Source: Candidatus Saccharimonadia bacterium
GTDB taxonomy: Bacteria > Patescibacteriota > Saccharimonadia > CAILAD01 > CAZGYV01
NCBI GenBank assembly: GCA_041906885.1
Contig: JAYRII010000014.1
Span: 10,059-74,058 of the forward strand
Direction of reading: 5' to 3'
Length of the DNA: 64,000 nucleotides
The notes below the pieces were generated by a model that was given only the letters and a program-made list of their open reading frames with translations, had not been told where the DNA came from and did not search any database. The translations under genes were made by a program, and so were the position numbers. Positions 34,802 through 41,223 of this stretch are shown here, in pieces (positions within the stretch are counted from its first letter, which is position 1; the number at the start of each line of letters is the position of its first letter).

Positions 34802-34965
34802 AATCGCAATTCGTGCCTAGAGCAAAAAGCACCGTTTTTTAGCCTTCTTTTATAAATTTTTGACACTTTTTTATAGCAAATAATTCGACCTTTTTTGCCA
34901 GATATCATGCTTGTCGGATTTAAGCTCAAACTGTATAATAACGACGTTCTTTGAGGACCAAAACT

Positions 34966-35275
34966 AGCTAGCGTGCGAAATTAAAAAACAAATTAAAAAT
35001 AATTTGTTTTTGCCAAATCATAGTGTTGGCGATGGCAAACTTTGATTTGAAGAGGAGAGTGTAGTAATTTTGCAAACTGAAGTTAATCTGCTTGCGAATA
35101 CATTTGCACAATGATTTATGAGCAAGAGATTACTGTTTGCTGGTTTGCTAGAATTGAATCACCAAATCAAAGTGTTAGCGATAGCGAGCTTTGATATGAA
35201 GAGGAGAAGCGAGACGAAAGTCGCAGTATGCCATCAAAGATGACATACGTAGACTATAGTGCTCGTCTTAGACGA
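34966..35275 (+). repeat. tRNA-upstream conserved module (copy 1, internally duplicated)
   Basis: gtgcgaaatta...; two sub-copies of ...caaagtgtt(g/a)gcgat(g/a)gc(a/g)a(a/g)ctttgat(t/a)tgaagaggag...; then ttgcaaactgaagttaatctgcttgcgaatacattt shared with 35990-36075. Confidence 0.5.
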
Positions 35276-35369
35276 GGAGAGGTACCCAAGAGGCTATAAG
35301 GGGCCGGTTTGCTAAACCGGTAGGTCGGCGAAAGTTGGCGCGAGGGTTCGAATCCCTCCCTCTCCGCCA
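35276..35369 (+). tRNA. tRNA-Ser (anticodon GCU)
   Basis: Acceptor GGAGAGG/CCTCTCC, anticodon stem CCGGU/ACCGG with loop UUGCUAA, long variable arm, GGTTCGAATCC T-loop, CCA encoded. Confidence 0.85.
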
Positions 35370-35700
35370 GGATAAGCTTTCGACATTTGTCGAAGGTTTA
35401 TCCTGCTGATATAGTAGGATTTGAACCCGAGCCTGCGAAGCAGGTGGGTTCGGCGGAATGAGATGACTCTCAGAAGCTAGCTTCGAGAATCATCGAATGG
35501 AGAAGGCGTTAGCCGCTATCCCTCCCTCTCCGCCAGGATGAGCTTTCGACTTTTGTCGAGAGTTCATCCTGCTGGTAGCAGGATTTGAACCCGTACCTGT
35601 GAAGCAGGTGGGTCCGGCGGAATGAGATGACTCTCAGAAGCTAGCTTCGAGAATCATCGAATGGAGAAGGCGTTAGTCGCTATCCCTCCCTCTCCGCCAG
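35370..35700 (+). repeat. two tandem ~165-bp repeat units, each ending in a copy of the tRNA-Ser 3' end (tccctccctctccgccag)
   Basis: Unit 1 is 35370-35536 and unit 2 is 35537-35700, ~93% identical. Each starts with a hairpin (gataagctttcgac...gtcgaagg) and ends with the 17-mer that also ends the tRNA. Confidence 0.7.
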
Positions 35701-35794
35701 ATATGTGGTCGTCACGATAGTGGCGGACACACTATTTGAGCAGGTAGCGATGAAAACCGATGGTTCGACAATTGAGTTTTGTGGTTAATAGAAT

Positions 35795-35869
35795 TGTCAT
35801 CCTGAGTGATAAAGAAGGATCTTCGGTTATCAGCTTGCTAGAGATTCTTCGCTGGCGCTCAGAATGACA
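35795..35869. repeat. MITE-like palindromic repeat, copy A (TGTCATCCTGAG...CTCAGAATGACA)
   Basis: ttgtcatcctgagtgataaagaaggatct...agattcttcgctggcgctcagaatgaca: terminal and subterminal inverted repeats. Confidence 0.6.
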
Positions 35870-35939
35870 AAATTCACCAATACTATCTCTCCTCCTTAAG
35901 CCAGGGCGGGCACATAAGAACTAAGGTCAAATCTAGCTC

Positions 35940-36173
35940 ACAGTGCGAAATTATTTATCTATGTTGAAAACAAAAATAATTCCGTGAATCGAGATTGATT
36001 TGAGAGGAAAGTTTAGCAATTTTACAAACCGAAGTTAATCTACTTGCGAATACATTTACGCGAAGATTTATGAGCATGAGATTACTGTTTGCGAAATTGA
36101 GAGGATTATCCGTGCATCGGTTGAAGTTGAAAAGCAAAGCTTTTTAACGAAAACTAAAGCACGAATAGGACGC
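35940..36173 (+). repeat. tRNA-upstream conserved module (copy 2)
   Basis: cagtgcgaaattatttat...aataattccgtgaatcgagattgatttgagaggaaagtttagc...caaaccgaagttaatctacttgcgaatacattt. Confidence 0.55.
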
Positions 36174-36264
36174 GGAGAGGTGTCCGAGTGGTTGAAGGAA
36201 CTGGTCTTGAAAACCAGCAGGCCGTTTAGCGGTCTCGTGGGTTCGAATCCCACCCTCTCCGCCA
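36174..36264 (+). tRNA. tRNA-Ser (anticodon UGA)
   Basis: Acceptor GGAGAGG/CCTCTCC, anticodon loop CUUGAAA, long variable arm, CCA encoded. Confidence 0.85.
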
Positions 36265-36365
36265 GATGAATGAGAGCCACGGAAGTGGTACTTATTCATC
36301 TGGACTGGGTGTGCTTGAGAACCCACATGGGTTCGGTGAAGCAAAGCGCGCAGAACAAATCGGAT
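36265..36365 (+). repeat. tRNA-downstream conserved module (copy 2)
   Basis: agatgaatgagagccacggaagtggtacttattcatctggactgggtgtgcttgagaacccacatgggttcggtgaagcaaagcgcgcagaacaaa: near-identical to the reverse complement of 17085-17178. Confidence 0.65.
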
Positions 36366-36446
36366 TGTCATCCTTAGTGACAACGAAGGATCTGGATATA
36401 ATATGAATGCAGATTCTTCTCCGCTAGCCGGCGGATCAGAATGACA
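36366..36446. repeat. MITE-like palindromic repeat, copy B
   Basis: ttgtcatccttagtgacaacgaaggatct...agattcttctccgctagccggcggatcagaatgaca. Confidence 0.6.
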
Positions 36447-36640
36447 GAGTTATATGATTAATCTCCACCCTCTCCGCTAGATGGAAGCGACTCACGACAG
36501 TGGGTCTTTTGCATCTGTGGGTGGGATGAGAATCCACGCAGTGGGGGCGTACTGTCATGGCGCGCAGAGCAAATTATTAGTTTACTTCGAGCATGAGTGG
36601 GCGAAGAAGGCGGAGCCGCTATCCCACGCTCTTGAGCCAT
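36447..36640 (+). repeat. downstream-module-like repeat carrying a partial tRNA-Ser 3' end (caccctctccgcTag) and a cgctatccc motif
   Basis: Parallel layout to 40795-40860 (ctctccgccggatggaagcgactcacgaaagtgggtc) and to the module at 36265. Confidence 0.5.
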
Positions 36641-39813: not shown

Positions 39814-39914
39814 GGCACGCCGGATGGCCTTTGACCTGAAGCCAAGAAGTTAGTATAATATGCTTTGCTCTTTAAAAGGTGGCCTTAGAGCAACCTGAAT
39901 TTTAGCACCAAATA

Positions 39915-40058
39915 CAACCCGCAGTGCGAAATTATTTGACCTCAGAATGAATAAATAATAATTTCGTGAATCGAGTTGTATTTGAAGAGGAGAAGTTTAG
40001 CGAAATCTTAAGTTCAATACAGCAGTAATTGAACGTAAGTTATAGCTATTTTCGACGA
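39915..40058 (+). repeat. tRNA-upstream conserved module (copy 3)
   Basis: gcagtgcgaaattatttgac...aataatttcgtgaatcgagttgtatttgaagaggagaagtttagc. Confidence 0.55.
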
Positions 40059-40135
40059 GTGCCCGTAGCTCAGCTGGATAGAGCGTCAGCTTGCGGTGCT
40101 GGAAGTCGGGGGTTCGAATCCCTCCGGGCACGCCA
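40059..40135 (+). tRNA. tRNA-Arg (anticodon GCG as read from loop UUGCGGU)
   Basis: Acceptor GTGCCCG/CGGGCAC, Arg-type D-arm GCTCAGCTGGATAGAGC, anticodon stem UCAGC/GCUGG, T-loop GGTTCGAATCC, CCA encoded. The anticodon is unusual (ACG or CCG expected). Confidence 0.7.
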
Positions 40136-40305
40136 TTTTATCTGATCTACCTGTAGGTAATGCAGATAAAAGTTGATTCCTCGAGGGATGAGAACCCGAA
40201 GGGTTCGGTGGAACAAAGCGCGCAGAGCAAGAATGAAGTTTGCTTCAGTTCTTGTCGAGCACTTCGTGAAGGTCGCGCTAGCGACAATCCCTCCGGGCAC
40301 GCCAT
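40136..40305 (+). repeat. tRNA-downstream module (copy 3), ending in a 19-bp direct repeat of the tRNA-Arg 3' end (aatccctccgggcacgcca at 40286-40304)
   Basis: Contains gagaacccgaagggttcggtggaacaaagcgcgcagagcaa...cgagcacttcgtgaagg, homologous to the 17-kb and 36-kb modules. Confidence 0.6.
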
Positions 40306-40335
40306 TGAACTAATCTTTAGTTATAAATAACAAAT

Positions 40336-40479
40336 CTAGCTCGCAATGCGAATTATTTATCAATTTCCATTGGTAAAAAATAATTTTGTGAATTGAGCTA
40401 GACTTGAAAAGAAGGCTTTGTGAGTAAGCCGAAGTAAAAACTACTTGGTTTTTACGTAAGCTGGAGCATAAAACGACAC
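40336..40479 (+). repeat. tRNA-upstream conserved module (copy 4)
   Basis: cgcaatgcgaattatttatc...aataattttgtgaattgagctagacttgaaaagaagg. Confidence 0.5.
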
Positions 40480-40569
40480 GGAGAGGTGACCGAGTGGTTG
40501 AAGGTGCTGCTCTCGAAAAGCAGTGTGCGGGCAACCGTACCGTGGGTTCGAATCCCACCCTCTCCGCCA
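40480..40569 (+). tRNA. tRNA-Ser (anticodon CGA)
   Basis: Acceptor GGAGAGG/CCTCTCC, anticodon loop CUCGAAA, long variable arm, CCA encoded. Confidence 0.85.
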
Positions 40570-40689
40570 ATTTTCACTTTTTGTGAAATCGTAAGGAATT
40601 GCCCCGCCGAGTCCAAATTAGTTTTCAGGATTTTCGTCAAAAAATGTTCGAACTTCGTCCAAAAAACCACATAATGAGTCAGTGCAAAT

Positions 40690-40860
40690 GCACTGACTCA
40701 TTATGTGATGTGGTGGATTTGAACCCGTATCCGCCGGTAGGCGGATGGATTCGGTGAAGCGAGTAATAGCGAACGGAGAAGTCGGAGCCGCTATCCCTCC
40801 CTCTCCGCCGGATGGAAGCGACTCACGAAAGTGGGTCGTTTGTGTCTGTAAATATAGCTG
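40690..40860 (+). repeat. downstream-module-like repeat with GGATTTGAACCCG hairpin element, cgctatccc motif and a tRNA-Ser 3'-end copy (tccctccctctccgccgg)
   Basis: Parallels 35430-35536 (ggatttgaacccg..cctg.gaagcagg..ggcgg...gccgctatccctccctctccgcc). Confidence 0.5.
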
Positions 40861-40869
40861 TACTATGGT

Positions 40870-41223
40870 ATGCCTTTTATATATAATCAGATCATGAAGA
40901 TCCATAAGCTTGTTTGGTATATATTAGTGACCCTTGTCGGCACTGTGATTATCTTTTTAGTTCTTCCAGGTAGCAAAATGGTGGAGCAACAAATTGGTAC
41001 GTGTGAAGCCAATGAGCTTTGCGTGGGAGACATCTATTGGGACTATGAGCAAATATGGCTTGGGTCATACCACCAGATAGCTAGCGGGGACTGGGTCAGC
41101 TTTGAAAATGAGTTTTGGCCTAAACTATATAAATCTCTATTTCTTTCAACCTTGATGGCTGGCTCATTTGGACTCGGGCAATTGATCGTACAAAAAGCCT
41201 CTAATTCCAAAGCCCAAAAATGA
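40870..41223 (+). CDS. small membrane protein, hypothetical
   Basis: 117 aa with an N-terminal TM helix. Confidence 0.35.
   Translation: MPFIYNQIMKIHKLVWYILVTLVGTVIIFLVLPGSKMVEQQIGTCEANELCVGDIYWDYEQIWLGSYHQIASGDWVSFENEFWPKLYKSLFLSTLMAGSFGLGQLIVQKASNSKAQK

Follow-up and report, generated by a model that had tools for sequence, protein, structure and literature searches.

Since the 1970s, the rtT repeat has been on record as an oddity of the tyrT locus of Escherichia coli, and the release of its 171-nt RNA from the tRNA precursor, with the 3' end at a copied CCA, is documented. At the tyrT/tyrV locus, four copies of the unit follow, each ending in AATCCTTCCCCCACCACCA, which is the last 19 nt of tRNA-Tyr. 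The Rfam RtT model scores these copies at 133-138 bits, and the annotated rttR RNA of E. coli is 171 nt long with its 3' end at the copied CCA. The number of RtT copies varies from 1 to 14 per E. coli genome. Here, we describe repeated units that follow tRNA genes and end in a copy of the tRNA 3' end in a 64-kb chromosomal stretch of Candidatus Saccharibacteria (TM7), contig JAYRII010000014.1. This whole stretch is called the window below. The units are a new, divergent variant of the RtT kind and are absent from Rfam.

Related RNAs have been found outside E. coli. RtT RNAs adjoining Asn and Lys tRNA genes were detected on Northern blots in Actinobacillus (PMC4986893). The element has been tentatively tied to the stringent response and likened to elements that contain bacterial interspersed mosaic elements (BIMEs) (PMC2965389). 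Under stress, the tyrT-rttR region of E. coli was also enriched in a 'mobilome' fraction of exonuclease-resistant DNA (bioRxiv 10.1101/2024.07.17.603846).

Results

Units behind the tRNA genes of the window

ARAGORN and Rfam identified five tRNA genes in the window: tRNA-Ser(GGA) (17179-17268, minus strand; 58 bits with the Rfam tRNA model) and, on the plus strand, tRNA-Ser(GCU) (35276-35369), tRNA-Ser(UGA) (36174-36264), tRNA-Arg(GCG) (40059-40135) and tRNA-Ser(CGA) (40480-40569). Sequence reading and a repeat finder resolved one to three units behind each of them, about 160-240 nt apiece and typically about 165 nt. A unit is self-contained and lies head-to-tail 3' of a tRNA gene on the same strand. 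It begins with a very stable stem-loop abutting the CCA of the tRNA, with which it often pairs. In the window, these hairpins are 15-18 perfect pairs long (z-scores of -5 to -9). Next comes GGAT(GA/TT)GAACCC, a loop or extension hairpin, and GGGTTCGGYGRA, which make up an inverted repeat that resembles a T arm (GGAU(GA)GAACCC..GGGUUCG) and bears a variable hairpin extension. A conserved, hairpin-bearing core of two arms follows, and the unit closes with a copy of positions ~59/61-76 of the neighboring tRNA, including CCA. This end reads (A/T)ATCCC, the 3' strand of the acceptor stem and NCCA, which amounts to the last 18-21 nt of the unit's own tRNA.

A covariance model, R1, was built from the units. 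Run without filters, it recovered seven window units, all 3' of tRNAs, and nothing credible elsewhere in the 64 kb. Beyond these seven recognizable units there are four more, which are decayed remnants or a truncated hairpin. The core motif CAAAGCGCGCAGARCAA has four matches in the window compared to 0.58 expected, and core motifs occur solely behind tRNAs. Two core sub-types are found among the units. No conserved open reading frame (ORF) was seen in them.

Behind tRNA-Ser(GCU), unit A1 (35370-35535; R1 99 bits) has a perfect 15-bp hairpin (z -8.6), an intact core and an exact 18-nt 3' copy at 35518-35535, with a fold z-score of -3.9. A2 (35536-35699; 91 bits) is a tandem copy of A1, 92% identical to it with a period of 164-166 nt, and again has an 18/18 copy at 35682-35699. 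A3 (35700-35903) is decayed, contains a nested palindrome and ends in the degenerate copy CTATCTCTCCTCCTTAAGCCA. Behind tRNA-Ser(UGA), B1 (36265-36479; 15 bits) combines a hairpin and 5' core of the E1 type with a nested palindrome in place of the 3' half and the 3' copy AATCTCCACCCTCTCCGCTA. B2 (36480-36639; 19.6 bits) is decayed, and its 3' part is 87% identical by blastn to the second unit 3' of tRNA-Ser(UGA) in the closest relative, L011. The repeat finder also placed a B3 remnant at 36640-37033, which retains only ..GGGAAGATTAGCGGCTATCCCACCCTTTTGCGCAG. C1 (40136-40304; 27 bits), behind tRNA-Arg(GCG), consists of a hairpin, GGGATGAGAACCCGAAGGGTTCGG, a core and an exact 19-nt copy of the tRNA-Arg 3' end (40286-40304). 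Its core is 87% identical over 95 nt to an L011 unit 3' of tRNA-Ser(UGA). D1 (40570-40810; 41 bits), behind tRNA-Ser(CGA), is a long trailer with an 18-bp perfect hairpin at 40668-40707 (z -9.1), a shortened core and the 3' copy ATCCCTCCCTCTCCGCCG. It is followed by D2 (40811-40850; repeat finder), a lone hairpin homologous to the first hairpin of B2 and a truncated further unit. On the minus strand behind tRNA-Ser(GGA), E1 (17011-17178; 19.6 bits) has the CCA-abutting hairpin, a GAGAACCC..GGGTTCG stem, a GCAAAGCGCGCA core and the decayed 3' copy CAATCCCGCCCTCTTGAGCCA. E1 and B1 are 89% identical over 112 nt, though they lie at different tRNAs 19 kb apart.

The 3' copy is thus exact in A1, A2 and C1, and it is progressively degenerate in the distal or older units A3, B1, B2, B3, D1 and E1. 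The degenerate copies lie at about 35885-35903, 36460-36479, 36619-36639, 37013-37033 and 40793-40810, and at 17011-17031 on the minus strand.

These results largely agree with the original prediction, made from the letters of this DNA. It had placed five tRNAs here, each between homologous upstream and downstream modules, and ARAGORN, nhmmer and the covariance model confirm them. The acceptor stem that it gave for all four tRNA-Ser genes, GGAGAGG/CCTCTCC, is indeed identical in the four. The tRNA-Arg repeat that it reported as 19 bp at 40116 and 40286 is real, although the repeat finder gives its length as 21 bp (40117-40137 and 40286-40306). The homology of the downstream modules and their tRNA 3' copies also hold, but the hairpin that these modules were said to share does not. 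The CCA-proximal sequence varies among units and is common only to B1 and E1.

Two further features of these arrays were noted. An imperfect palindrome of about 85 nt (TTGTCATCCTKAGTGA..GAAGGATCT..AGATTCTTC..CAGAATGACA; fold z-score -5.4) is nested in A3 (35791-35875) and B1 (36362-36450), where it displaces the 3' half of the core. It has two copies only in the window and looks like a separate miniature hairpin element. Logan short-read contigs of the same strain (L001-L010, with an identical 630-aa protein) repeatedly begin at about 36306, within B1. The units break short-read assemblies at tRNA loci.

The 3' copy tracks the adjacent tRNA

Metagenome contigs were scanned with the pattern GAACCC-N(3-30)-GGGTTCGGYGRA-N(50-80)-ATCCC-N10-CCA, which leaves the ten tRNA-specific bases free. 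The scan returned 57 loci. At nearly all loci with a tRNA on the contig, the match lies 48-65 nt 3' of a same-strand tRNA, and its last 18 nt are those of the adjacent tRNA 3' end, mostly at 18/18. The host tRNAs are Ser (four anticodons), Ala-UGC, Gln (two), Lys (two) and Arg. When distinct units with a same-strand upstream tRNA on the contig were considered, 46 of 55 were at most 120 nt from that tRNA, and the 16-nt copy in these 46 was identical to the adjacent tRNA at a mean of 15.3/16 positions. Arg units found by the model and not by the pattern have Arg-type ends starting with GT or AGT, as their tRNA does, so their copy starts near position 59. Saccharibacteria are likewise the source of the Ala-type loci, as judged by relatives of GyrA. 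The T-arm halves follow the neighboring tRNA weakly overall (11.6 vs 10.6 of 17), with clear tracking in L202, L212, L214 and L219. One pattern match, in L215, was discarded as a chance match inside a Pro/Gly-rich coding region.

The covariance model had no match in 1.26 Mb of genome loci from other phyla and gave noise only on 100 viral loci. The arm-plus-repeat pattern had no match in viral contigs, and BLAST of the units against phage and plasmid collections also returned no match. A phage or plasmid origin was rejected for these reasons. Rfam, searched at gathering and at permissive thresholds, contained no family for the units except for one sub-threshold RtT match.

Tandem arrays occur in the window and in L204, L236 and L238. 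L238 carries four tandem units whose bodies are quite different and whose 3' copies are near-perfect. The copies of window units E1 and B2 and of the L241 unit fail to match their own tRNA. The L241 unit (9419-9590) has a 3' copy of the tRNA-Gln type, sits behind tRNA-Arg(CCG) and is nearly identical to a unit behind tRNA-Gln in L242, from the same sample. This mismatch shows that the copy can travel with the unit.

Three other loci have unusual arrangements. In L202 (oriented), a 5' fragment of tRNA-Ser(CGA), GGAGAGGTGGCCGAGC, is fused directly to a unit core and 3' copy at 3666-3822. A deletion from the D arm to the unit seems to have destroyed this tRNA. Another orphan 5' piece of tRNA-Ser is found at 558-600 of this locus, 5' of tRNA-Ser(GCU). 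In L221 (contig Ga0169931_10040856), a 1.7-kb insert (2140-3890) starts precisely where the copied CCA of the first tRNA-Ala unit ends. Two minus-strand ORFs of 104 and 228 aa lie in the insert, and half a hairpin and a second complete unit follow it. These ORFs matched no Pfam or PHROG family and contained no recombinase domain. The copied tRNA end may be an insertion hot spot for larger DNA. In L197 (oriented), a tRNA-Lys unit has, besides the direct copy, an inverted copy of the tRNA 3' end (17/18) directly after the terminator hairpin at about 4105-4125. The tRNA end, hairpin and inverted copy form one long palindrome there, of which most other units keep a decayed trace.

The core covaries

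Covariation was assessed in a model-based alignment of 62 distinct units. Double changes were found in 24 of 35 pairs compared to a mean of 17.8 in shuffles, and compensated cells numbered 238 compared to 76. Cells were paired at 87% with the model's partners and at 34-52% with slid partners. The signal resides in the long P2 arm and the P3 hairpin. The P2 arm consists of an outer helix, a 2-bp inner helix, an internal loop and a hairpin that is often closed by a CUUG or UUUA loop. P2 and P3 are joined by the purine-rich linkers GGYGGAGCGA and GAGCGGARRAGG. On the GAACCC/GGGTTC stem, the extension hairpin keeps its pairing while its sequence varies, and a GCGUAGC loop is frequent. The linker dinucleotide in the T-arm-like motif is most commonly GA (19 of 56 units). 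Folds of single sequences recur among the units as well.

We also considered whether the left arm is a full inverted copy of the tRNA end that pairs with the 3' copy. This is true for L197 (17/18) and some other units, but the agreement is near chance overall, with a mean of 9/18 compared to 8 by chance, and the idea was dropped.

Gain, loss and conservation in relatives

The gene order valyl-tRNA synthetase (ValRS), tRNA-Ser(GCU), tRNA-Ser(UGA) ... tRNA-Arg(GCG), tRNA-Ser(CGA) is kept in Saccharibacteria, including relatives without modules. The Ser-GCU and Ser-UGA sites are variously occupied. L011 has units at both, L021 has one unit between the tRNAs, L013 has a 57-nt spacer, and L014 has 22 nt between the tRNAs and a plain terminator after Ser-UGA. 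L015 and L018 have protein-coding inserts in place of units. These inserts (L015 13460-15384; L018 13326-14168) contain, as read from translations, a MazG-like pyrophosphohydrolase gene and a methylated-DNA-protein-cysteine methyltransferase-like gene, and no flanking tRNA 3' copy was found at them. At an orthologous tRNA-Ile/tRNA-Ala locus, L249, L251 and L253 have tRNA-Ala and a terminator only, with no unit, and this is a second empty/filled polymorphism. The original prediction had offered the downstream modules as possible insertions at tRNA 3' ends and had pointed to related genomes as the place to look. With filled and empty orthologous sites now in hand, together with the tRNA copies, the trailers are seen to be lineage-specific additions.

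Where units are present, the core is conserved above its flanks. Between L199 and L201, tRNA-Ser(GGA) is 100% and the unit core 98.3% identical, whereas neither the intervening hairpin (52%) nor the downstream DNA (45%) can be aligned. The adjacent ABC-transporter genes are 71-75% identical in nucleotides. Likewise, the core of C1 is 81-87% identical to the L011 unit, compared to 64-77% for coding DNA. This conservation argues that the core is under purifying selection, or else that it spread recently.

The upstream leader

A leader of about 150 nt is homologous 5' of all five window tRNAs and 5' of Ser-GCU in L011. It was present in no other examined locus. The nhmmer E-values are 4e-30 for the leader of Ser-UGA (35926-36173), 5e-35 for Arg-GCG (39906-40058), 2e-36 for Ser-CGA (40329-40479), 8e-8 for Ser-GGA (17269-17500, minus strand; the value is for 17269-17351, and the rest is from alignment) and 0.009 for Ser-GCU (34956-35275). 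The last of these was delimited by repeat finder, alignment and nhmmer, and contains an internal 46-nt duplication (35013-35058 and 35162-35207). The leader is composed of a long, AT-rich hairpin (GCGAAATTATTT..AAATAATTTCG), the box TTTGAARAGGAG, a second hairpin, and AAAACGACRC abutting the tRNA. We treated it as a lineage-specific repeated leader.

No convincing promoter was found within the leader module. Good sigma-70 matches sit 5' of it: candidates at 34911-34939 (plus strand; TTGTCG-17-TATAAT, 10/12, a consensus match only), 5' of the Ser-GCU leader, and at 39831-39859 (plus strand; TTGACC-17-TATAAT, 11/12), 5' of the Arg leader. With the best sites there, transcripts would carry the module as a long 5' leader. 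In more distant relatives, an ordinary TATAAT promoter lies 25-50 nt 5' of the tRNA. A leader peptide was also considered, and short ORFs follow an AAGGAGG box in two copies, but they are not conserved. A purine box in the leader, GAAGAGGAGAG (GGAGAGGT in L011), resembles the 5' end of tRNA-Ser, GGAGAGGT... It is found in the window at 35046-35060, 35195-35207, 39976-39988 and 17325-17345 (minus strand), and at about 13550-13570 in L011. By this resemblance, the leaders may hold degenerate copies of tRNA 5' ends, a mirror image of the trailers.

Gene content of the window

The closest matches of the window's ValRS are metagenome-assembled genomes of Saccharibacteria, at 63-80% identity. Pfam was run on 39 of the 41 window ORFs that are 150 aa or longer and on three shorter ones next to the tRNAs. 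None of them matched an integrase, recombinase, transposase or reverse transcriptase, and no RAYT-like gene was seen among the same ORFs. Two neighboring FemAB-family genes, encoding aminoacyl-tRNA-dependent peptidyl transferases, lie at 26144-28416 (minus strand), 7 kb from the tRNA cluster. At 46803-54261 there is a type IV secretion (T4SS)-like cluster with a T4SS pilin, a PrgI-family protein and a TraG/VirB4-like ATPase, and next come a 1585-aa protein with a VanY domain and a lytic transglycosylase/amidase protein. Since dnaN and recF are at the window end, the region lies near the replication origin.

Discussion

We see about an even chance that the units are tRNA-trailer modules of the RtT class, which are co-transcribed with the tRNA, released at the copied CCA and changed in number by recombination between the 3'-end repeats. 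By analogy to E. coli rtT, the module RNA would be made by read-through from the tRNA promoter, and the tRNA maturation machinery would also cut its 3' end and trim it at the copied CCA. A stable structured RNA would be released, and its core would be under selection. Recombination between 3'-end repeats could allow modules to multiply, to shift between tRNAs with similar 3' ends and to be lost. The event could be unequal crossing-over, or a unit could be excised and re-integrated through the repeat. This would lead to arrays of tandem units, to distal copies that decay and to orthologous sites that stand empty. How the end comes to match a new tRNA type is explained neither by this reading nor by the insertion of a selfish element, discussed below.

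A number of observations weigh against the RtT-class reading. The Rfam RtT model has no match at E<=5 in window positions 34800-41000, and its best score, 21.7 bits (E 4.8, full-length on L231), is below the gathering threshold of 45. Model R1, in turn, fails to detect E. coli RtT. Since the score for RF00391 is not reached, we class the units as a divergent variant of the RtT kind outside the Rfam family. Common descent with RtT is unproven, and the likeness could be convergent. In most metagenome units, the hairpin between tRNA and core resembles an intrinsic terminator with a stem and a T run, so read-through would be limited, and no internal promoter is evident in these units. A tRNA-like cloverleaf, with GGYGGAG pairing to the copied CUCCRCC, fits Ser and Ala units but is uncompensated in Lys and Gln units and was rejected. 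The left arm pairs well with the copy in only about one-fourth of units. Helix mismatches are G-U in 25 cases and A-C in 16, which does not prove plus-strand RNA to be the folded species. The tandem arrays with decayed copies, the 89% identity of B1 and E1 at two tRNAs of one genome, the Gln-type unit behind tRNA-Arg and the 1.7-kb cargo after a copied CCA are unfavorable to a purely functional reading. The different bodies and near-perfect copies of L238 fit site-directed insertion better than selection on one RNA. Occupancy is patchy, with orthologous sites empty in L013, L014, L249, L251 and L253, which speaks against such a reading as well. Lastly, recent spread, and not selection, could account for the high identity of cores between genomes.

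Some of these points favor a selfish, non-autonomous insertion element, which we find rather unlikely as the explanation although it is the strongest of the alternatives. Here, a short structured DNA, or an RNA copied to DNA, would be placed after the CCA by an enzyme encoded elsewhere, and every insertion would regenerate or duplicate the last 16-19 bp of the target. Possible routes are staggered cleavage at the T loop and after the CCA, integration of a repeat-bearing minicircle, and copying primed by the tRNA or the target. The hairpins would serve for recognition when the nucleic acid is single-stranded, as in REPIN/RAYT, IS200/605 and integron attC. Patchy occupancy with empty orthologous sites, and tandem arrays with decayed distal copies, are as this idea would have it, as are the L238 units and the position of the L221 cargo. 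The 3' copy fits the adjacent tRNA though cores are related across tRNA types: C1 (Arg) and the second L011 unit (Ser) are 87% identical, and the Lys unit of L239 is nearly identical in P2 to the Ser-CGA unit of L214. The inverted copy in L197, the lack of a clear RNA-type wobble asymmetry, and the enrichment of tyrT-rttR in exonuclease-resistant DNA under stress (bioRxiv 10.1101/2024.07.17.603846) point the same way. However, the window has no transposase, integrase or reverse transcriptase, and group II introns, hence their reverse transcriptases, went undetected in Patescibacteria genomes (PMC13011429). Most copies lack terminal inverted repeats. The core is conserved like a tRNA while the flanks are randomized, and the window and L011 have arrays at the same tRNA despite a coding nucleotide difference of about 25-35%, so the units are old yet conserved. 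The mismatched copies of L241, E1 and B2 indicate that the copy is sometimes carried along and not made from the target. A derivative of an insertion sequence or of a miniature inverted-repeat transposable element was considered separately and rejected, since most units have no terminal inverted repeats and the repeat is 16-19 nt and always a tRNA end. The selfish-element and RtT-class readings are not mutually exclusive. A related proposal, which we consider improbable, is a mobile, RNA-based element whose 3' end is made anew from the target whenever it inserts, or a scaffold with a tRNA-matching guide RNA. Copying could be tRNA- or target-primed, with the copied segment starting at 59-61 by A58, like the 18-nt primer-binding site of retroelements. 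In the guide variant, the 16-18-nt tRNA-matching 3' segment on the scaffold would direct a trans-encoded protein that recognizes the universal T loop beside the target. If true, this would be a previously unknown kind of tRNA-gene targeting in bacteria and would also explain the RtT repeats of E. coli.

Two other explanations fare worse. A direct repeat of a tRNA 3' end from the T loop is the classic footprint of tyrosine-integrase attachment (att) sites, and phages or integrative elements that target tRNA 3' ends could have left attL/attR scars, reduced by internal deletion to short remnants like those of cis-mobilizable elements. As at att sites, inserted DNA is flanked by the repeat, the tRNA gene stays intact, and successive insertions stack at the tRNA-proximal copy, which would yield the observed order of decay. 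Larger cargo is present at such a site in L221, though its proteins have no recombinase domain. Unlike integrase elements, the units have neither integrase nor cargo, keep a constant size of about 165 bp, and carry the same core, conserved and covarying, at five types of tRNA across many genomes, which random deletion remnants would not. Their absence from the viral, phage and plasmid collections means that no matching attP was seen. We judge such scars to be very unlikely. The original prediction, which named att duplications as the nearest analogy, was right that no integrase is present, but RtT at tyrT has the same architecture as these cargo-free units of about 165 bp and is nearer. It had also proposed that the four Ser isoacceptors arose by duplication of a whole cassette of leader, tRNA and trailer, followed by anticodon change. 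The homologous leaders and trailers around all five tRNAs, the 89% identity of Ser-GGA and Ser-CGA and an identical 29-nt 3' end in three Ser genes would fit. Nevertheless, the same tRNA order is found in relatives without either module, so the idea is not supported. Ser paralogues in the window are 69-89% identical compared to 82-97% for orthologues across genomes. Ser-GCU (84-97%) and Ser-UGA (79-87%) are closer to their orthologues than to paralogues (69-79%), which suggests that the Ser isoacceptor set is old. The non-Ser tRNA-Arg bears the same modules, and modules lie behind Ala, Gln and Lys tRNAs elsewhere. This origin can hardly be credited.

Comparison with known systems

The family is widespread in Saccharibacteria, absent from Rfam, strongly structured and located at five tRNA types, and it revives interest in an old element. 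A structured trailer that ends in a tRNA 3' copy looks like a general, recurrent bacterial design and not an enterobacterial accident. The Saccharibacteria units provide a second, independent data set on the role of the RNA and on how the tRNA-specific end is kept matched. Candidate roles for the RNA are a mimic of the tRNA 3' end, a processing by-product and a regulator of uncharged-tRNA sensing. In practice, partial tRNA copies can mislead the prediction of att sites and genomic islands, and the repeats break short-read assemblies of Saccharibacteria.

Repetitive extragenic palindromic (REP) sequences, BIMEs and REPINs are, like the units, short intergenic hairpin repeats with compensated stems that are often terminator-like and patchy in copy number. 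In contrast to the units, REPINs have no link to tRNA 3' ends, are found in either orientation and do not copy the end of a neighboring gene. The window also has no visible RAYT-like gene. Group I introns are structured RNA elements tied to tRNA genes in the same phylum. Those of Patescibacteria interrupt the anticodon loop (35/36 and other positions), self-splice and mostly lack a protein gene (PMC13011429). The units, on the other hand, follow a complete tRNA and are far too small. A link to group I introns was ruled out since the tRNAs are complete, there is no Rfam intron match and the introns lie in the anticodon loop (PMC13011429).

The closest counterpart is RtT (RF00391). In both cases, the units sit directly 3' of a same-strand tRNA gene, repeat the last ~19 nt of that tRNA, CCA included, at their own 3' end (19/19 in C1, 18/18 in A1 and A2), contain internal GC-rich hairpins, and form tandem repeats of variable copy number, with a period of 164-166 nt for A1/A2 compared to 178 nt in E. 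coli. The sizes are similar, the RtT unit being about 130-178 nt. RtT likewise accompanies several tRNA types in gammaproteobacteria, Tyr in E. coli and, in Actinobacillus, a position beside Asn and Lys genes (PMC4986893). The 5' inverted T-arm-like motif GGAUGAGAAC..GGUUCG forms invariant columns in a joint alignment of E. coli and Saccharibacteria sequences. The 5' part of E. coli RtT, GGGGAAGGAUGAGAAGCUUCGA..AAGGUUCGA, aligns with the Saccharibacteria units, and both have GA for UC relative to an inverted T arm. The differences are that the Saccharibacteria units belong to another phylum (Patescibacteria), that their core has another arrangement of arms and other conserved linkers, and that a strong, often terminator-like hairpin separates tRNA and core, a hairpin that is absent in E. 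coli. In addition, the small Tpr peptide is encoded in the E. coli repeats, whereas no conserved ORF was seen in the Saccharibacteria units.

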